Shown in pieces: positions 729 through 45,157 of a DNA stretch of 48,461 nucleotides. Made by a program: the position numbers and the translations under genes. The stretch is from a virus. Lineage: Duplodnaviria > Heunggongvirae > Uroviricota > Caudoviricetes. Location of the stretch: positions 1-48,461 of IMG/VR virus record IMGVR_UViG_2778261094_000010; one strand, given 5' to 3'. Positions within the stretch are counted from its first letter, which is position 1. Each line of letters starts with the position of its first letter. The notes under the pieces are model-generated. The model ran no database searches. It was not told where the DNA came from and saw only the letters and a list, made by a program, of their open reading frames with translations.

Positions 729-1838
729 TTAACCTGATACAGATCGCCATGCACCATTAATATAAATCTGAGCCTGTTTGTAATACACGCCACCGATATT
801 GTCTGCAGAGTTACGGCCAGTATCCTGAACATTAATGCCTGACAAAACACAACCAGAAGGTGCTCGAAACGTCCAGCTGTGCTCGTTCCCGCCCGGGTTG
901 TAAAACACCTCACTGGTATACTGAAAATTCTGTACGCCACCTGTTTTGGTCTGGTAGCGGGTATCAAAGTTTCCGTAGTCTGACGGTATAACCTGATGCC
1001 CACATCGCCAGTTTCCCGCATCATCCATATACGCCTGACCGTCCGTACCATTATCCGTACGGCTATTATTTATCATGTAAATGCCAAACTGCTTATTCCC
1101 AAGACCAGCCAGGAAATACTTTCTGTCTGCATGATCCTGACGCAGAAGCGCCTGAGCAGCATCAGTATTTATCCTGTTTTTCCCGAAAATAACGTTGTTG
1201 TCACGCATCTGAATCCACGTTCCGTTACTGCTGTTAATCGCAAAACGGCCTGCAAATACATCTTCTGTAACATCCAGACCATGTCCCATAGTTATGCGAC
1301 CGGTCCTGAGATTAAGCGTAAAGGGGCGTAGCGGCCCAATATCACCACTCTCGCCCTGATTTTCCCGGGTAGGAATGAGGTACAGACACTCTTCCGAACG
1401 ACGAAAAATCAGACCAAAGGCTTCGTTGAAAATCCTCAGTGCATTAACGCCACGGATTTTCAGCTCCCCGGTCATGGTGTCTCCATCACGCTGAACGGCA
1501 TTTTTTGCCTTATCCACCGTGGGTTTTAATCCGAGGTTTTCAACAGCCTCATCACTGTCTTCGATATCCGAAAGATTATTTTTTATCAGCAATGCCTCTT
1601 CGTTAATCGCACCGCCAACCAGTAATAATATGGCTTTATATAACTGGTCGTGTTCCTCTTTATTCAGTTTTATCCCGGCCTTCTCAATGACACCACAGAT
1701 TTCCTCCTGAAGGGCATCCCACATGGCACTGTTCAGCCAGGTGGCATGACGCCCTGTACGAATATTCCCGTCAGTAAATCCGTTCTTGCCCGGGCCAAAT
1801 TTATCTTTAACTGCTGTCGGAGTGTCAATTCTGTGCAT
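729..1838 (-). CDS. Tail fibre protein (receptor-binding, side tail fibre C-terminal type)
   Basis: 369 aa, Gly/Asn/Thr-rich with a conserved fibre C-terminus (SDYGNFDTRYQ); strong GGGAGG ribosome-binding site before the ATG at 1838; followed by Tfa. Confidence 0.8.
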   Translation of the reverse strand: MHRIDTPTAVKDKFGPGKNGFTDGNIRTGRHATWLNSAMWDALQEEICGVIEKAGIKLNKEEHDQLYKAILLLVGGAINEEALLIKNNLSDIEDSDEAVENLGLKPTVDKAKNAVQRDGDTMTGELKIRGVNALRIFNEAFGLIFRRSEECLYLIPTRENQGESGDIGPLRPFTLNLRTGRITMGHGLDVTEDVFAGRFAINSSNGTWIQMRDNNVIFGKNRINTDAAQALLRQDHADRKYFLAGLGNKQFGIYMINNSRTDNGTDGQAYMDDAGNWRCGHQVIPSDYGNFDTRYQTKTGGVQNFQYTSEVFYNPGGNEHSWTFRAPSGCVLSGINVQDTGRNSADNIGGVYYKQAQIYINGAWRSVSG

Positions 1839-1868
1839 ATTAAACCTCCCGTGAATTAAATATCAGAA

Positions 1869-2918
1869 TTATGTCCTTGCCTGATTAAACAATTCCGCTG
1901 TGAAAGTCAGTTCACCCTTTGTGAAAGGCGTTTCTCCGCCTGGCTGGGCCATAAAACTCTGTGAGACAGTCGTCCAGCTGTTTGTGTCGCTTTGTACGCC
2001 ATTCTCTGTAATCGTTGCGCCTGCATGGCTGCCATTTTTCACTTTCCAGGCCAGGCGGTTATTGGGGGCATCAGCACCGCGGTAAGTGACCGAGGCCATA
2101 ACGGCCACAACATCACTGTTGACGTTATCCACCGCACCAAACGTGGCCTGTGCGGCATTCAGGGACGGCGAGAGCATCAGATATCCGGCCTCGCTGTCAG
2201 AGGTGTTCAGCCCCGTGACAATATCTTTATTCAGTGAGTTTTTGGCGCTTCCACCGGTAAATGCCGTTACCGGGCTGTATCTGACCTCAATGCTTCCGAG
2301 CAGGGCGGGTTCTGCACTATTATTTCTACCGTATGTCACTGTTCCACAGTACATATCACCCAGCATTAACGTGCCGGATGCACCCGATGAAAAAATATTG
2401 TTACCACCACCAATACTCACCTGAATTTTGTCAGTCCGGTCATCTGGTACATAAAACGATGTATTTCCAACTAATGAGCGGTTGCAGTACAGACTGGCTG
2501 AGACATAGCCGTTTTCGTTTCGCGTTGCGAAAATTTCATAGTAATAACTGGCTGCTTCATCAGGATACGGGGTTGTAAATGAATAGCCATTAATCCTGAT
2601 GTGGGATGGCGAAGATGAATATTTCTTTCCCGCACTTAATGTCAGACGAAATCCCAGCTGTACAGCTGAGGCTTTTAAGTCCGGAAGTGTGCTGTACAGT
2701 GTGACATATGAGGGTGTCGTAAAAATCAGCCCCGTTCTTTCTACAGTATTTACGGCCTGAGTGCCACGACAGACGGATGTTACAGAACCGGACATATCAT
2801 TGATAAGCGTGACACCGTTTTCGTTCAGTGCTGAAATAATATTTGTTGAATAATAGTTCTCGCACAATCCCTCATTCGCCGGAATTTGTCGAAAACTTTC
2901 GAGTTTAATAATATTCAA
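1869..2918 (-). CDS. Hypothetical tail fibre-associated protein, probable proximal fibre or adaptor
   Basis: 349 aa Ser/Thr/Gly/Asn-rich ORF between the DUF2313-like baseplate protein and the fibre gene. Apparent TTG start at 2916..2918 preceded by AAGGAGAG. Confidence 0.5.
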   Translation of the reverse strand: MNIIKLESFRQIPANEGLCENYYSTNIISALNENGVTLINDMSGSVTSVCRGTQAVNTVERTGLIFTTPSYVTLYSTLPDLKASAVQLGFRLTLSAGKKYSSSPSHIRINGYSFTTPYPDEAASYYYEIFATRNENGYVSASLYCNRSLVGNTSFYVPDDRTDKIQVSIGGGNNIFSSGASGTLMLGDMYCGTVTYGRNNSAEPALLGSIEVRYSPVTAFTGGSAKNSLNKDIVTGLNTSDSEAGYLMLSPSLNAAQATFGAVDNVNSDVVAVMASVTYRGADAPNNRLAWKVKNGSHAGATITENGVQSDTNSWTTVSQSFMAQPGGETPFTKGELTFTAELFNQART

Positions 2919-2941
2919 AGCGGCTCTCCTTTTATTTTATG

Positions 2942-3901
2942 TCATTCGGACGTGACCACAGCAAAATGCAGTCCCGGGTGATTAATCAATAACGGTTCAC
3001 GGGTTCTGCTGGCTGTCTGCAACTGCATACTGTTAACCGGTACGGGGGAGCGGGTCCTGTATCCCGTCTGCAACTGTGCGCTGTTCATGGTCATGGGGTC
3101 CGTTGTCGGCAGACCTGAGTGCAATTGCGCCCTGCTGAGTACCAGTGGTTCTGCCATCGGACGGGCGGCATAAAAGTTAATCCGGTTAATTGTCAGCGGC
3201 TTACCTGTCAGTGCCGGAACAACCGCAAAATGAACACCTGTATGATTAATCGCTAATGGCTCAGTCGTCTTGTGTCCGGCCTGAAAGGAGAGGCTGTTTA
3301 TAGTCAGGGCGGCTTGTTGCCCTTCACCAGACTCATCCGGATATGCAAAAAGGACAACAGTATGCGACGGACATAATTTATTAATCACGCACTCCGCAAC
3401 CGTATCACCCCACGTCCGGATCGGTGTGTTACAGGTGTCCGAACATGTCTGCCACTGAGCACCGGCATCCACCGGCAACGTCACACGCCAGAAATAACGC
3501 CAGCGATCACCCCATTCCGGATCGGGGCTTGCATCCAGGTGCTGGAACTGTTCGATCGTCACGCCGGTATATCCCAGCGCCTCAAGCTGCTCCAGGAAGA
3601 ACTGCTCATTTATGCCACCAGCCACATTGGCTTTTGCTTCCAGCCGTTGCTGACGCTGGCGTAATGTCTGGGCTCCAACAGGAGAGCAGGTGTCAGGTAA
3701 ACCATACAATTCTTCATAACGTTCAATCAGCTCTGTTGACTGACCAGGATCGATTTCAGCCATCAGTTCATCAGTCCGCTGATGAACACGTACAAGCGAT
3801 GGTGCCAGACCATCAAGCACGCCGTCGGTATCGCTCCATGCAGGCCCCGGCGGCATCAGTCCGTACAGCAGCTTTGTATAATCATCCTGTAACGAATCCA
3901 T
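2942..3901 (-). CDS. Baseplate/tail protein, DUF2313 (Mu gp48 / P2 gpI-like) with an internally repeated C-terminal extension
   Basis: N-terminal MDSLQDDYTKLLYGLMPPGPAW region resembles YmfQ/gp48-type proteins; C-terminus carries repeated PL.INH.G.HFAVV and QLQT/QLHS motifs. Confidence 0.7.
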   Translation of the reverse strand: MDSLQDDYTKLLYGLMPPGPAWSDTDGVLDGLAPSLVRVHQRTDELMAEIDPGQSTELIERYEELYGLPDTCSPVGAQTLRQRQQRLEAKANVAGGINEQFFLEQLEALGYTGVTIEQFQHLDASPDPEWGDRWRYFWRVTLPVDAGAQWQTCSDTCNTPIRTWGDTVAECVINKLCPSHTVVLFAYPDESGEGQQAALTINSLSFQAGHKTTEPLAINHTGVHFAVVPALTGKPLTINRINFYAARPMAEPLVLSRAQLHSGLPTTDPMTMNSAQLQTGYRTRSPVPVNSMQLQTASRTREPLLINHPGLHFAVVTSE

Positions 3902-5928: not shown

Positions 5929-6983
5929 CAGAAATCCTCCTCAACATTTTTTTTCTTCCTGGCGGTAACAGGCTCGGGGAGATAAGCATCTGCCGGGCCA
6001 ACCCGTAATTCAGTCGTCGTGCCCCGGTCGTCCTGGTTATAGGTAACTTCTGCAATCACCAGTTCATCATTATCAAAATTATTCAGCGGGTCGAAAACGA
6101 TGACAGATAACCCCGGACGCCATAACGCGCCACTGCCCTGCCGCCAGCCCTGAACCGTATATGTTGTCTCACGGGTAAGCGCAGCCCGTTGGCGCGCTTC
6201 AAATTCACAACGGGCCTTACAGGTTGCTGTCGTTGCTGTGCCTGACTGCTGAATCAACAAAGGGCGATAACGGGTCACGCCATTGTCCTGAATGGTCTGA
6301 CGTATTGCGGCAATGGTGGCCTCACCAAAATCATCGTCGTTGCCCGGGCGCTGCCCACTGACCTGATATTCAGAAAACCGCTCTCTGATGCTTCTTTCCG
6401 TGTCACAGGAAAGAATATTCTCTCCCAGCACCAGTGCCGTCGCCGCTTTGCCTGTTCCGGGTTTCCCAAGAACCAGTCGCCCACATTCATCGTCATAAGC
6501 CAGCGTCTGAACCTGCCCCAGCAACCGGTTAAGACAATCGGCAACAGTTTCGCCGTGTTCCGGCTGTGCATCAATCACCGCAGTCTGAGGCACGCCAGCA
6601 TCAACAACAGTGATGCCAAATGGCGCAGCCAGTTCAGTGACTATTCTGAGCAGGTTTTTTCCGCTCTGCTGGAGTGGCAAAGCGGAGCAATCAACCAGAT
6701 CGGCTGTTTTGCTTCGCCCGACAATCCCCATACTGACGCTGCTGGCGTCATAACGAAGCGGTAGTGCCTCCACATATCCGGTGAGCACGGGCTCATCCCC
6801 GATAAGCACTTCAACCAGCTCACCATTTTTTATCCGGGGCTGATAATCCCGGCTGCCGGGCCAGCGGGTGGTAATGGCAACATTAAAATCCCGGGCAATA
6901 CGGTTAATGCCCGCACTGATACGGACGGATGTCCAGCCGCCCCATTCGCGACCGGAAACCCGAAGTAAAACGGTATTATTCAT
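5928..6983 (-). CDS. Tail protein gpD-like (Mu gp44-like baseplate hub)
   Basis: 351 aa; conserved position after the DNA circulation protein; P2 gpD / Mu P-like sequence character. Confidence 0.75.
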   Translation of the reverse strand: MNNTVLLRVSGREWGGWTSVRISAGINRIARDFNVAITTRWPGSRDYQPRIKNGELVEVLIGDEPVLTGYVEALPLRYDASSVSMGIVGRSKTADLVDCSALPLQQSGKNLLRIVTELAAPFGITVVDAGVPQTAVIDAQPEHGETVADCLNRLLGQVQTLAYDDECGRLVLGKPGTGKAATALVLGENILSCDTERSIRERFSEYQVSGQRPGNDDDFGEATIAAIRQTIQDNGVTRYRPLLIQQSGTATTATCKARCEFEARQRAALTRETTYTVQGWRQGSGALWRPGLSVIVFDPLNNFDNDELVIAEVTYNQDDRGTTTELRVGPADAYLPEPVTARKKKNVEEDF

Positions 6984-38176: not shown

Positions 38177-38253
38177 TGGCGCGTTGTACTGGATTCGAAC
38201 CAGTGACCGATTGCTTAGAAGGCAATTGCTCTGTCCGGCTGAGCTAACAACGC
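38177..38253 (-). tRNA. tRNA-Arg (anticodon UCU)
   Basis: Manual cloverleaf: acceptor GCGTTGT/ACAACGC, anticodon stem ATTGC/GCAAT, loop CUUCUAA, T-loop GGTTCGAATCC, 3' CCA. Confidence 0.85.
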
Positions 38254-38266
38254 AGGGTACAGATAA

Positions 38267-38343
38267 TGGACCGCCATCGAGGACTCGAACCCCGCGCAAC
38301 CAGCTCCGAAGGCTGGCGCTCTATCCTGATGAGCTAATGGCGG
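38267..38343 (-). tRNA. tRNA-Arg (anticodon UCG as parsed)
   Basis: Manual cloverleaf: acceptor CCGCCAT/ATGGCGG, anticodon stem CCAGC/GCTGG, loop CUUCGGA, T-loop GGTTCGAGTCC, 3' CCA. Confidence 0.8.
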
Positions 38344-38350
38344 TATGTGA

Positions 38351-38426
38351 TGGTGGCCCTTGCTGGATTTGAACCAGCGACCTGGCGATTATGAGTCGCT
38401 CGCTCTCACCACTGAGCTAAAGGGCC
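38351..38426 (-). tRNA. tRNA with CAU anticodon (tRNA-Ile2 lysidine type or tRNA-Met)
   Basis: Manual cloverleaf: acceptor GGCCCTT/AAGGGCC, anticodon loop CUCAUAA, T-loop GGTTCAAATCC, 3' CCA; first of three tandem tRNAs in an ileZ-argN-argO-like arrangement. Confidence 0.8.
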
Positions 38427-40836: not shown

Positions 40837-41597
40837 GACTCACTCCTTAAAAAAGAATGCACAAAATCAAACGCCACATCATCTATTGTCTGATATCTAT
40901 CATCTTTATCCATCCTGGTACACTTCGCTATGATAGGCTTTATTTTTTTATCATCTAAATTTAAGTCCTCAATTAACCGCCCCACCGCATAAACATCAGT
41001 CTTAACTGAATACTCGGCATTATATAAAATCTCGGGAGCCATATATCTTGTACTTCCCATACGGGTACCGATCTCGGTCAATTTAGTGGTATCCCCTTCG
41101 GGATTTGTATCTTTTACCAGACCAAAATCAGACACCTTGTATGTTCCGTCGCTAAATCGCAAGACATTAAATGGTTTTATATCTCTGTGTAAATAGCCTT
41201 TCGCATGGATGTGAGCTACACCATCTAATACCATTTTCACTATTGAAATTTTTTGATCTGTTGTAAGAAGGTTGTTCGTTATTTCGTGCTCAAGATCACA
41301 TTCTGCTTTATCCATAATGAACCATGGATTCTCGGCAAACAAATCGCACAAATAAATAGGAACAATATTGCTATGTACGCAATGTGATTGATACACGACC
41401 TCCCTTTTAAAACGCCTTCTAAACTGCTCTATTTGCGCCAAAAGCTCTGGTTTTTCGGGGGCTAAAACCTTTCTAGCATAATCCCCACATTCACCCTTGT
41501 TGAGGTTGTAAACCTTAACGTGTTCAACAAAGCCAAATGCACCCCTTCCAATCAACTGAATTCGTTTTATAAAGTAATTACCGTGCTGTTCTTCCAT
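40833..41597 (-). CDS. Hanks-type Ser/Thr protein kinase (kinase domain only)
   Basis: Complete kinase subdomain set: glycine loop GRGAFGFV, catalytic Lys in YARK, HRDIKPFNV, DFG, TRYMAPE, DVYAVG. Start assigned to the ATG at 41597 (MEEQHGNYF). Confidence 0.85.
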   Translation of the reverse strand: MEEQHGNYFIKRIQLIGRGAFGFVEHVKVYNLNKGECGDYARKVLAPEKPELLAQIEQFRRRFKREVVYQSHCVHSNIVPIYLCDLFAENPWFIMDKAECDLEHEITNNLLTTDQKISIVKMVLDGVAHIHAKGYLHRDIKPFNVLRFSDGTYKVSDFGLVKDTNPEGDTTKLTEIGTRMGSTRYMAPEILYNAEYSVKTDVYAVGRLIEDLNLDDKKIKPIIAKCTRMDKDDRYQTIDDVAFDFVHSFLRSES

Positions 41598-41669
41598 TAA
41601 GCTCACCGACCTAAATTGTAAGAATATCCATATCTTACAACTACAGATAAAAAGGTCCACAGAGTTAAG

Positions 41670-42799: not shown

Positions 42800-43774
42800 T
42801 TACCCAAGCACGCCGGTTGCAAAGGCGTGATCAAGAAAATGAAAAATTAAATCAACCTGGGAACCATGCTTTTCTTCGAATGCCAGCGGATCCGCATGAA
42901 GCTCGTTGTGATGCTCCCGACACAGCGGTAGTGTGAAAATATCGTGGGATTTTGTTCCCATTCCACCCTGACCGTGGCCTATCAAGTGGTGGGGATCATC
43001 AGCAGGCTTTCCACAACATGCACACGGCTGTGTCTTAACCCAGCGCGTGTATTTCTCGTTAAGCCAGCGGCGACGTTTAGGTCGTTTCATGAAAGATTCC
43101 GGAGACTCCGGCTCAACGGCAATGCTGACCACCGTCTTTTCCTGTGGCGGGTTTTGCTGGTGGGCGTGAGGCAGCGGCGCAATATTTTTTGTGCGCTGCT
43201 TCAGCATGCTGGTGGCAGTCTGCTCTCCCGGCACGATGTCGCTCTCGCGGTATACTGAGCGAATTTTTTCCGCACGTAACCCCAGAGAACGACGTAACAC
43301 CGTCTCCGGTAGTGCGTCCGCTACGTTATTTATGGTTGCCCACCAGGATAATTCAGCCAGCGATAATTCCCGCTCCTGCGTGCCATTCATTGCGTGGCGG
43401 ATGACATCAATCATCCATGCTGACAGGTTTTGGTGAGCAAGCTGCCCGAGTGATTCGGAAGTCTGGTTACGCAGCTGGTTGTCGCAGTGCCAGCACAACA
43501 CCATCGCGCCGGTACCGTAACGATGTATGACGGTTTCACTGTGATGGTAGTCACCATGAGGCCACTGGCAGGATTTAACGTGGCGTAACAGCCAGTCAGA
43601 CAATGCACCAGCACCACCAGCAGCACGAATCACCCGCTCATCGCTGAAAAATGGCAGTAATGATTTATCCTCCGCCAGCGGCTGGCGAACAGCAGGAACG
43701 ACTCCGGACGGCAGACCGCGCATGCTTTTCGGTTCCGGCTCCACCAGAACTCGAGGGTTATGAAATACCTGCAT
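42800..43774 (-). CDS. DUF968-family protein with C-terminal HNH-like Cys/His motif (YdfU-like, nin region)
   Basis: C-terminal CACCGKPADDPHHLIGHGQGGMGTKSHDIFTLPLCREHH motif; start uncertain (ATG at 43774 chosen; ORF extends to 43918). Confidence 0.55.
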   Translation of the reverse strand: MQVFHNPRVLVEPEPKSMRGLPSGVVPAVRQPLAEDKSLLPFFSDERVIRAAGGAGALSDWLLRHVKSCQWPHGDYHHSETVIHRYGTGAMVLCWHCDNQLRNQTSESLGQLAHQNLSAWMIDVIRHAMNGTQERELSLAELSWWATINNVADALPETVLRRSLGLRAEKIRSVYRESDIVPGEQTATSMLKQRTKNIAPLPHAHQQNPPQEKTVVSIAVEPESPESFMKRPKRRRWLNEKYTRWVKTQPCACCGKPADDPHHLIGHGQGGMGTKSHDIFTLPLCREHHNELHADPLAFEEKHGSQVDLIFHFLDHAFATGVLG

Positions 43775-43847
43775 GGATTCACGGCCCGGTTTTAGCACCA
43801 CCAGCCCAAGTTCCGGTACCGGAACAGGTCGAAGTAATACCCGCACG

Positions 43848-44120
43848 TTACCTCCAGATGCGTTGCTGGAATGTGCGGGACGGACGCGGTGGGCGTTCGG
43901 AATAAGGGAGCCTGACATAGATTATCCAGTGACGATAATCGAGGCTGAGGGCTTTCTTAATCTCGTATCCGCGTCTGCGGTAGTTATGAATTAGCCATTC
44001 GGCCTGTTCTTCAGTACATGGTGGGTGTTGGTACCAGTCGGTTTTAAATGCGTGTGAACGCCGCCCATGCCGGATGGCAAGGGCGGTATCAGAATTGTGA
44101 AATTTGGTTTTGTGCGCCAT
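43848..44120 (-). CDS. Hypothetical small protein (possibly Rem-like)
   Basis: ORF from MAHKTKFHNSDTALAIRHGRR located between hok and the DUF968 gene, as in Qin-type prophage gene order. Confidence 0.35.
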   Translation of the reverse strand: MAHKTKFHNSDTALAIRHGRRSHAFKTDWYQHPPCTEEQAEWLIHNYRRRGYEIKKALSLDYRHWIIYVRLPYSERPPRPSRTFQQRIWR

Positions 44121-44287
44121 CGGTTGTCTCTGCTGGCGCAGCAGGTGCCAGTTGTTCAGGCTGGCGTGCGAATTGTAAACCAGAATGCCAGGAAAAAACA
44201 AAACCCGCCGAAGCGGGTTAAGTGCGGGTGCGTTGAGGATGCCTGACTCATCAGAGGTGGCGAGGGATTTCTCCCTCACCTGGTCTC

Positions 44288-44443
44288 TTACTCCTCAGGT
44301 TCGTAAGCTGTGAAGACAGCGACCTCCGTCTGGCCGGTTCGGATTCGTACCTCGCAGAGGTCTTTCCTCGTTACCAGTGCCGTCACTATGACGGTTAAAC
44401 AGATGACGATCAGGGCGATTAACATCGCCTTTTGCTGCTTCAT
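44288..44443 (-). CDS. hokD: Hok/Gef-family type I toxin (HokD/RelF-like small membrane toxin)
   Basis: 51 aa MKQQKAMLIALIVICLTVIVTALVTRKDLCEVRIRTGQTEVAVFTAYEPEE: single transmembrane helix plus conserved Cys and EVAVF motif of Hok proteins; GGAGA ribosome-binding site before the ATG at 44443; an in-frame N-terminal extension exists in the longer listed ORF. Confidence 0.8.
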   Translation of the reverse strand: MKQQKAMLIALIVICLTVIVTALVTRKDLCEVRIRTGQTEVAVFTAYEPEE

Positions 44444-44734
44444 AGCCTGCTTCTCCTTGCCTTTCGGCACGTAAGAGGCTAACCTACATTTGTGAGACAT
44501 AGATTGGGCCTCAGATTAATGTTAAGCGTCGTGCAGGACGCGTAATGTTAACTGGGGCTTTTCTCTATCTGCCTTTTGGTGTTCATGCCTGAGACAGATA
44601 GCCTCAAGCACCCGCAGTCATTCTACTTAACTAAGATTTCCCCGCAAACCGTTTTTATCCCCAGCTGCAAATCGAATACACAACAAGTGCTGCCGCCATT
44701 GCAATTCCTGTCGTTGTGAATGCCTCCGGCCAGG

Positions 44735-45157
44735 TCATCGTAAAACATCCTCCGCGCTTATCAGCCCATTCCGCTCCAGATACCCCATCGCCATATCCGG
44801 TAATTTGCAATCTGGTTTCGCTTTTTTCAACTGACTTACCAATTGTTTAACCAGCATTGCCAACTCTTCCTCATGTGAAAGTGATGCCGGTTGCGCAGCG
44901 TACAGGGGTTTTGGCGCAATGGCTGAGTGTTTTGCGTATGCCGCAACAGATTCAGCATTGAACAAAACCATATTGTGAGCACAGGACCATGCAACTGGCA
45001 TTGCTTCAAGTGAGGCAAGCGCAATACGGGCAAGCGCAAGATCCATTTCAATGGCAACTCTTGAAGTCTTAAACACGGTCTGTCGCGCAGCAAATTTCAT
45101 GGATTTCACACTTTCATTAGCATGAGCAATCAATTGCTCTCTGGTAAATTTCGTCAT
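44735..45157 (-). CDS. Hypothetical phage protein
   Basis: ORF from MTKFTREQLIAHANESVKSMKF (ATG at 45157); no recognisable motif. Confidence 0.45.
   Translation of the reverse strand: MTKFTREQLIAHANESVKSMKFAARQTVFKTSRVAIEMDLALARIALASLEAMPVAWSCAHNMVLFNAESVAAYAKHSAIAPKPLYAAQPASLSHEEELAMLVKQLVSQLKKAKPDCKLPDMAMGYLERNGLISAEDVLR

Follow-up and report, generated by a model that had tools for sequence, protein, structure and literature searches.

Two described loci serve as references for the one reported here: hok/sok (parB) of plasmid R1, the paradigm, which is plasmid-borne with demonstrated post-segregational killing, and hokW-sokW (with mokW) of the Sakai prophage Sp5 and the Stx2 phages, which has been shown experimentally to be a type I toxin-antitoxin (TA) system (Takada et al. 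2021, PMC8621323). Processing of the hok mRNA at its 3' end, cleavage of the Sok-hok duplex by RNase III, the instability of Sok beside a stable mRNA, and the toxicity of Hok were all shown for R1 (PMC9841398), and partly for hokW-sokW, where mitomycin C leads to loss of Sok and production of HokW, an effect that depends on RecA, and where deletion of the locus halves phage release (PMC8621323). According to a recent survey, Hok is present in almost 80% of Enterobacteriaceae genomes and hok is enriched in prophages (bioRxiv 10.1101/2025.08.07.668861). Here we describe the hok locus of a 48,461-nt stretch of Caudoviricetes DNA (IMG/VR record IMGVR_UViG_2778261094_000010), referred to in full as the window; the hok strand is the minus strand, and all coordinates are those of the whole window. 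Loci of this kind are already known, very common and textbook material, and hok/sok loci of prophages have been catalogued. We conclude, with a probability of about 0.87, that 44647..44193 is a complete hokD-type hok/mok/sok type I TA cassette in the nin region of a lambdoid prophage. K-12 hokD, with an identical toxin, is the rearranged form.

A complete hok/mok/sok cassette

The toxin is encoded by a 51-aa open reading frame (ORF; 44443..44288, minus strand, peptide MKQQKAMLIALIVICLTVIVTALVTRKDLCEVRIRTGQTEVAVFTAYEPEE), which matches all 42 positions of the Pfam model HOK_GEF (PF01848; E=1.2e-23, 82.9 bits, cut-off 22 bits) as well as PHROG 251, 'MokW-like host killing' (E=2.8e-33). Toxins of this family are about 50 aa long and have a single transmembrane helix. 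In RefSeq the product is WP_000813254.1, an accession shared with HokD of Escherichia coli K-12, and tblastn with K-12 HokD gives 100% identity over 51 aa. The chromosome of E. coli FDAARGOS_1077 matches a 461-nt segment of the window (44640..44180) at 100% identity, and the RefSeq name for the coding sequence (CDS) there is hokD. A first-pass annotation, made by a model from the letters and an ORF list, had called a Hok/Gef-family toxin resembling HokD/RelF, and each of these searches agrees with it; on the strength of its sequence the ORF is a real Hok toxin.

The region upstream of hok was compared with Rfam and with an R1-type locus. Rfam RF01794 ('sok'; 157 model positions, gathering score 59) matches 44613..44438 on the minus strand over model positions 1-157 with 120.1 bits (E=6.5e-27); the conserved structure covered by the model comprises the tac/ucb stem, hairpin II, the target hairpin and the hok SD hairpin. 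An R1-type reference (L004) was recovered from a plasmid collection. It is 100% identical to the query, which we take to be R1 hok/sok, and its sequence is present in thousands of plasmids. All of the elements named in R1, from the -10 hexamer through fbi, are found in the window in identical order (Table 1), the R1 mechanism being that summarised in PMC9841398. The 5' end of the hok mRNA was set by alignment to the start of the R1-type leader and by position 1 of the Rfam model. Upstream of it, a -10-like hexamer (TAGAAT, TATAAT, TACAAT or TAAGAT) is held at a constant distance from tac in more than 30 loci of several genera, and tac itself is almost unchanged across 34 loci. At the other end, the intrinsic terminator is the sole terminator-like site reported by a simple scan that covered 44050..44800. 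The whole hok/mok/sok locus thus spans about 44647..44193.

The start codon of mok aligns with the mok starts of the R1-type, Rac, hokC and hokW loci and of more than 30 relatives. It precedes that of hok by 57 nt and is in frame with it, and the predicted product is therefore Hok extended by 19 residues at its N-terminus. The same arrangement is seen in the hokC and hokW types, whereas in the R1-type, the Rac-type and several Kluyvera copies the offset is 58 nt and mok, although of similar length, is out of frame. Because the in-frame arrangement is common to the hokC and hokW types, it is a known variant and no anomaly. Translational coupling of mok and hok is assumed after the homologous systems.

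The first-pass annotation had anticipated a Mok frame, a Sok RNA and fold-back elements, and had proposed alignment to characterised hok/sok loci as the way to find them; all three are located, as the Rfam match, the mok ORF, the plus-strand promoter and hairpin, and the tac/fbi pairing. Its boundaries were too narrow. The range 44288..44560 takes in the CDS and, of the leader, no more than some two thirds, and the elements, although they all exist, are not confined to the leader interval of 44444..44560 in which it expected them, since they run past 44560 on the 5' side and past 44288 on the 3' side. It had also entertained a decayed locus, which this is not, because the antisense gene and the fold-back elements are present.

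Table 1. Features of the hok/mok/sok locus and its downstream neighbours in the window
Feature	Coordinates	Strand	Description and basis
Candidate hok promoter	44620..44647	-	-10 TAGAAT (44625..44620); weak -35 TTGCGG (44647..44642); 16-nt spacer
Full-length hok mRNA	44195..44613	-	about 419 nt; 5' end estimated (within 2 nt); 3' end set at terminator T-run
tac (translational activator)	44602..44615	-	GCGGGUGCUUGAGG; pairs with fbi in full-length minimum free energy (MFE) fold
tac partner in metastable 5' hairpin	44586..44595	-	folding of first 35-45 nt
ucb / anti-Shine-Dalgarno	44552..44559	-	AGCCCCAG; full-length MFE fold; 5' fragment fold
mok Shine-Dalgarno (SD)	44509..44512	-	GAGG; 8 nt 5' of mok ATG
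Sok-target hairpin	44475..44512	-	GAGGC...GCCUC; predicted, -12.1 kcal/mol
mok ORF	44288..44500	-	70 codons, ATG at 44500; ORF list
Target loop	44490..44496	-	CUCACAA, 7 nt; within Sok-target hairpin
dcb box	44475..44479	-	GCCUC; 3' base of target hairpin
hok SD	44453..44458	-	AAGGAG; sequence
hok CDS	44288..44443	-	51 aa; Pfam HOK_GEF match; RefSeq protein same as K-12 HokD
3' untranslated region (UTR) stem-loop	44256..44280	-	9 bp, G+C-rich; every predicted fold
fbi (fold-back inhibition)	44224..44238	-	CCUCAACGCACCCGC; 14 bp to tac, one bulge
Intrinsic terminator	44193..44219	-	AACCCGCUUCGGCGGGUU then U-run; terminator scan; with the T-run also mapped at 44219..44202
Sok promoter	44457..44485	+	-35 TTGCCT (44457..44462), 17-nt spacer, -10 TAACCT (44480..44485); R1 layout
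Predicted Sok RNA	44492..44565	+	about 70-80 nt; ends estimated; folding
90-aa ORF	43848..44120	-	77% identical to K-12 92-aa WP_012304870.1
DUF968 gene	42800..43846/43918		downstream of hok; profile match

Predicted folding of the hok mRNA

The 419-nt transcript is predicted to fold with -175 kcal/mol (z=-8.5, 100 shuffles). In both the MFE and the centroid folds tac pairs with fbi in the 14-bp, singly bulged duplex (-27.3 kcal/mol), such that the ends of the mRNA are closed as they are in the R1-type reference fold, and in the full-length MFE fold residues C59, C60 and C62 of ucb are paired with G107, G106 and G104 of the mok SD. Switching was assessed by folding 5' fragments of 35, 45, 60 and 80 nt for comparison with the full-length pair table. 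The first 35-45 nt form an 11-bp hairpin (positions 5-15 with 21-31; -16.9 kcal/mol) in which tac positions 5-14 are occupied, and the first 80 nt form a tac/ucb stem, which is also present in the RNAalifold consensus of 27 leaders and in the Rfam structure line. As predictions, these structures behave in the manner of the R1 model.

The consensus was derived from a MAFFT alignment of the 27 leaders, with indel-rich parts folded for each sequence separately. The tac/ucb stem and the lower end of the target hairpin are recovered by RNAalifold; owing to the indels, hairpin II and the upper part of the target stem are missed. A target hairpin of similar size is nevertheless found in 27 of the 27 leaders when they are compared, with stem sequences that differ and an invariant GAGGC/GCCUC base. 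Beyond the hok stop codon, the 3' UTR stem-loop has an equivalent in the R1-type locus, likewise positioned after the stop codon, and by analogy it may correspond to the end hairpin of the processed (truncated) R1 hok mRNA (PMC9841398).

RefSeq carries a 59-aa 'hypothetical protein', WP_001394181.1, at 44067..44246 on the plus strand (3395..3574 of the identical RefSeq prophage, L001), antisense to the hok 3' UTR, fbi and the terminator. This is probably a spurious call over structured RNA.

The Sok antisense RNA

On the plus strand, the proposed Sok promoter shares its layout and its 17-nt spacer with the R1 sok promoter (TTGCGC-17-TATCCT), and both of its hexamers are conserved among related loci. 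The -10 sequence appears to have been tested already in the hokW-sokW study, because the mutagenic primer that we take to have yielded the sokW construct without a promoter, YO-421, puts other bases in place of AGGTTA, which is complementary to TAACCT (PMC8621323). The Sok RNA predicted to follow begins with an unpaired 5' tail, whose sequence is complementary to that of the mok start and target loop, and continues with a long hairpin at about 44506..44560 and then UUUUCUCU; none of 200 shuffled sequences is as stable as its predicted fold (-33 kcal/mol, z=-5.2). Folded as antisense RNA, the hairpin has a much lower energy (-23.7 kcal/mol in the window) than when folded as the hok strand (-14.0 kcal/mol); G-U pairs of the plus-strand hairpin become A-C mismatches on the minus strand, and the antisense strand is favoured in all 27 loci compared (means of -17.8 vs -9.4 kcal/mol). 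Such an asymmetry is as expected from selection acting on an antisense RNA. The features that mark a Sok gene can all be read from the plus strand, and the transcript is a predicted one.

Sequence variation is unevenly distributed with respect to this RNA. Among eight close hokD-type leaders it is concentrated from the mok SD to the target loop (44490..44508 on the minus strand, corresponding to the Sok 5' tail), where 13 of 27 positions vary; hairpin II varies at 5 of 39 positions, and the segment containing the Sok promoter and the hok SD at 6 of 42. Similarly, the window and the hokW copy are separated by seven substitutions within the first ~22 nt of Sok, and their hairpins differ at two loop positions only. 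Substitutions clustered in the 5' tail may set the specificity of Sok among co-resident copies, and because of these seven differences in the 5' tail and mok start the specificity of the window Sok may not be that of hokW.

Conservation among related loci

When the Hok peptide was used to scan a single genome of each species, 53 loci were obtained, belonging to Escherichia, Shigella, Kluyvera, Pseudocitrobacter, Citrobacter, Photorhabdus, Pantoea and others. Most of these are preceded by the Rfam leader, and RF01794 matches more than 40 related loci; no leader match was obtained with RF01794 at K-12 hokD (L002), at the relBE-linked L008 and L029, or at L007. The best tac partner lies 45-56 nt past the hok stop codon in most intact loci, other offsets being seen in a minority that is mostly of the hokC type.

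Compensatory changes between tac and fbi are found in Photorhabdus, Pantoea and Kluyvera, with GGGUGC/GCACCC replaced by GGGCGC/GCGCCC, and GAGGC/CCUC by GAGAC/UCUC. Duplex energies for cognate and non-cognate tac/fbi partners (22 distinct combinations; means of -21.9 vs -20.9 kcal/mol) do not discriminate between the two because tac is almost invariant, and the evidence for covariation is therefore in the individual compensatory changes.

Three of these loci deserve separate mention. L007 (E. coli ECMA0423, 1830..2000) encodes a HokD that is 100% identical, with a decayed leader from which tac is deleted and which contains several indels. Tandem hok leaders are present in L038 (Photorhabdus temperata, 1856..3206), with three Rfam matches ~620-630 nt apart, and in L030 (1271..2003), with two; these are consistent with the clustered hok/sok loci reported for Photorhabdus (PMC1635323).

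Comparison with described hok/sok systems

Of the characterised systems, hokW-sokW is the nearest relative; it has the same cassette architecture and is also carried by a lambdoid phage. The hokW-type copy of Stx2 converting phage I is 93% identical to the window over about 414 aligned nt, and its Hok is identical at 47 of 51 residues, the C-termini differing as ...FTAYEPEE in the window and ...FVDYESEK in hokW. Its mok is likewise in frame and 70 codons long, the -35 and -10 of Sok are identical, and the Sok hairpin is nearly so. The two diverge beyond fbi, where the window has a canonical terminator, and in their surroundings, the window cassette lying in the nin region before Q whereas the Stx2 phage I copy adjoins an ea-type gene. 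The protein gene 5' of hok is not shared by the two phages (E=0.046), and only a 27-aa ORF and the cassette are common to both. Phage records variously name the cassette 'MokW', 'host killer protein', 'HokD toxin' or 'mok/hok'.

The R1 system is more distant, with 22 of 51 Hok residues identical and about 74% nucleotide identity, although the 5' tail of Sok and the shape of its hairpin are common to both. Apart from the frame of mok (58 nt and out of frame in R1, 57 nt and in frame in the window), the differences are in hairpin II of Sok and the leader, which is about 12-16 nt longer in the window, and in the loop of the tac hairpin, which is longer in R1. The R1 locus is on a plasmid and its killing activity is established. 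The hokC (gef)/mokC/sokC locus has 41 of 51 Hok residues identical, the same tac, an in-frame mok of 69 rather than 70 codons and an Rfam leader match of 112-118 bits. It occupies a chromosomal, non-prophage site with the small RNA tpke11 about 1.4 kb downstream, and it differs from the window in a shorter hairpin II, a Sok -35 of TTGACC and a different -10.

Prophage setting and the K-12 hokD locus

The genes around the cassette are all on the hok strand, in the order O-like, ATP-binding replication protein, DUF1627, helix-turn-helix (HTH), DUF4406, a 140-aa hypothetical protein, hok, a 90-aa ORF, DUF968, RusA and Q. The cassette therefore lies in a lambdoid nin-type region, from the replication genes to Q, which is where the first-pass annotation had put it, and the DUF968 neighbour that it named is indeed downstream. 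The Rem-like neighbour was a misidentification: BLASTP of this neighbour against K-12 Rem gives no alignment at E<=100, and tblastn finds no Rem in the window. The K-12 counterpart of the 90-aa ORF is the unnamed 92-aa WP_012304870.1, which sits between rem and ydfU.

The same annotation remarked on the lack of relBE next to hok, and tblastn finds no match to RelB or RelE (E<=1e-3) anywhere in the 48-kb window. The absence is correctly noted, but there is nothing odd in it, as complete loci lacking relBE are the commoner kind. In a survey of 5426 complete E. coli genomes, with a complete cassette defined as a match to at least 80% of the 461-nt query (44640..44180), the complete cassette is found in 3916 (about 72%) and the K-12 relE-hokD junction in 1164, so that 'no relBE' is the normal state. 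The number of cassette copies per genome has a median of 2 and reaches 10.

Comparison with K-12 hokD (relF, of relBEF, in Qin) shows where the two forms part. The Hok proteins are identical, the CDS, 3' UTR, fbi and terminator are about 98% identical, and the downstream genes correspond (the 90/92-aa ORF, the DUF968 gene ydfU and a Q-like antiterminator). Homology stops at window position 44457, about 14-16 nt before the hok ATG, with relB-relE lying 5' in K-12, and K-12 hokD has no tac, ucb, mok start, or Sok RNA and promoter, all of which are in the window. K-12 also has rem between hokD and the 92-aa ORF, and the window does not; the difference is thus upstream only, plus the missing rem. 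All K-12 hok loci except hokB are described as inactivated, the cause being either insertion elements (hokA, hokC, hokE) or a rearrangement removing canonical components (PMC12214031); the latter evidently refers to hokD, in agreement with the breakpoint seen here. Judging from the alignment, the relBE-linked, leader-less K-12 hokD is a rearranged minority form and the window carries the intact one.

A relBE-linked arrangement is also seen in Kluyvera sp. CHPC 1.2972 (L029, 1406..2150), in which RelB and RelE, 97-99% identical to those of K-12, are directly 5' of a Hok that is 70% identical to HokD. As this locus has relBE and no Rfam leader, the leader-less relBE-hok arrangement is not confined to K-12.

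The hok CDS around the Tyr47 codon is identical in the window and in K-12 hokD. This codon lies within GCUUACGAACC (44298..44308, minus strand), which contains UACG, the motif for A-to-I editing by TadA. The K-12 hokD mRNA is reported to be edited at a low level (6%), recoding the conserved Tyr47 position to Cys (PMC12214031).

Three further features of the region were noted. An unannotated 27-aa hydrophobic ORF, MTWPEAFTTTGIAMAAALVVYSICSWG (44735..44655, minus strand), has an ATG that overlaps the stop codon of the 140-aa gene (ATGA) and ends about 30 nt 5' of the hok -10; L006 and the hokW copy of Stx2 converting phage I (L058) have it 5' of hok as well, despite a different preceding protein gene there, and a PHROG search with it gave no match. 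Three consecutive tRNA genes (38180..38426, minus strand; 72.5, 70.1 and 54.1 bits) are downstream of the Q antiterminator region. In the identical RefSeq prophage (L001), Q is directly followed by an annotated serine/threonine protein kinase gene (6043..6461; about 41598..41180 in the window, minus strand).

Weighing the alternatives

The presence, arrangement and conservation of every element are apparent from the alignments and the predicted structures, and it is on these that the conclusion of a complete cassette is based. Several points weigh against it. Expression, processing, toxicity and biological role of the window cassette we infer only, by analogy. The hok -35 is weak and varies between contexts, and the sigma-70 consensus scan of 44050..44800 returned no sites, neither promoter passing, although this negative is uninformative and no evidence of absence, because by our own hexamer count the functional R1 sok promoter would fail too. 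The MFE folds of 3'-truncated mRNA vary with the assumed end, giving the metastable-type 5' hairpin at nt 360 and 368 and the tac/ucb stem at nt 375, and because of this dependence no processing site is claimed. Some intact chromosomal hok loci are reported to lack post-segregational killing, so structural completeness is no guarantee of R1-like activity. Finally, the genome with the identical locus has five matching places, so that cross-talk between Sok RNAs, or redundancy, is possible.

One alternative is that the cassette is intact but physiologically silent, being transcribed under permanent repression or having an mRNA that is never activated, so that it has no killing or stabilising effect, and that it persists by hitch-hiking with the prophage. 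The promoter hexamers are indeed weak by consensus, and many copies are co-resident per genome. We nevertheless consider silence unlikely: the elements are strongly conserved, with compensatory changes across genera, which argues for ongoing selection on regulation beyond the ORF; decayed copies exist and look different, as L007 does; and hokW-sokW, at 93% identity, is an active system with an effect on phage release (PMC8621323). A different possibility is suggested by the identity of the protein to K-12 HokD, namely that this is an orphan hokD/relF of the K-12 type, not controlled by any Sok or Mok belonging to it and dependent for all its expression on read-through from upstream genes. As hok is co-oriented with the upstream early-operon genes, read-through transcripts probably exist too. 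The K-12 homology, however, begins only at 44457, the K-12 locus has no Rfam match, and the leader of the window is complete at 170 nt and includes tac, ucb, mok and the Sok promoter, which makes an orphan gene highly improbable; on this leader evidence both it and a decayed locus were rejected.

It might also be supposed that the Rfam name is literal, and that 'Sok' is encoded on the minus (hok) strand at 44613..44438, given that RF01794 is named 'sok antitoxin' and that its match is on that strand. The model, however, runs from the start of the R1-type leader into the hok AUG, and the helices it contains correspond to the tac/ucb stem and the target hairpin; it is the plus strand that has the promoter of R1 layout and the hairpin of greater stability. 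We therefore regard a minus-strand Sok as the least credible of the alternatives, and rejected the name at face value: what RF01794 models is the Sok target, the leader of the hok mRNA. Automated annotation with this model would place 'Sok' on the wrong strand.

Proposed mechanism and implications

If the complete cassette works as do plasmid R1 hok/sok and Sp5 hokW-sokW, the homologues from which its mechanism is drawn, a constitutive promoter would produce a hok mRNA of about 420 nt, with tac held in a local hairpin while the transcript is nascent. In the finished mRNA tac would pair with the 3' fbi and ucb would mask the mok SD, so as to permit neither translation nor Sok binding. Slow trimming of the 3' end would remove fbi and allow tac to move to ucb, exposing the mok SD and the target hairpin. 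The unstable plus-strand Sok (about 75 nt) would then pair with the mok start region, blocking mok translation and leading to cleavage of the duplex, and because translation of hok would be coupled to that of mok, hok would be blocked also. Should Sok synthesis stop, through loss of the element, a block in transcription or prophage induction, the stable processed mRNA would be translated, and the 51-aa Hok would depolarise the inner membrane.

The cassette could serve prophage addiction, assist lysis at induction in the manner of hokW-sokW, or exclude other phages. We tentatively suggest that it is wired to prophage induction, with a second possibility being that co-resident copies are orthogonal, self-specific switches, and we hold the two together to be possible rather than probable. 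With regard to wiring, the cassette has the same orientation as the delayed-early rightward operon in which it sits; transcription from the early promoter, once antiterminated, would meet the Sok promoter head-on and deplete Sok, read-through RNAs would carry hok without the tac/fbi lock, and Hok, or the in-frame 70-aa Mok-Hok fusion, would at induction be an auxiliary lysis or timing factor. This link between early-operon read-through and Sok depletion is speculative. Orthogonality of the copies could follow from the clustered substitutions in the Sok 5' tail and mok start.

For annotation, the gain is that RefSeq labels just the 51-aa CDS, as 'hokD', leaving out mok, Sok and the mRNA elements. 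For the hok family in E. coli, the comparison means that hokD/relF of K-12 is a minority, rearranged version, the cassette being intact in about 72% of the species' complete genomes.

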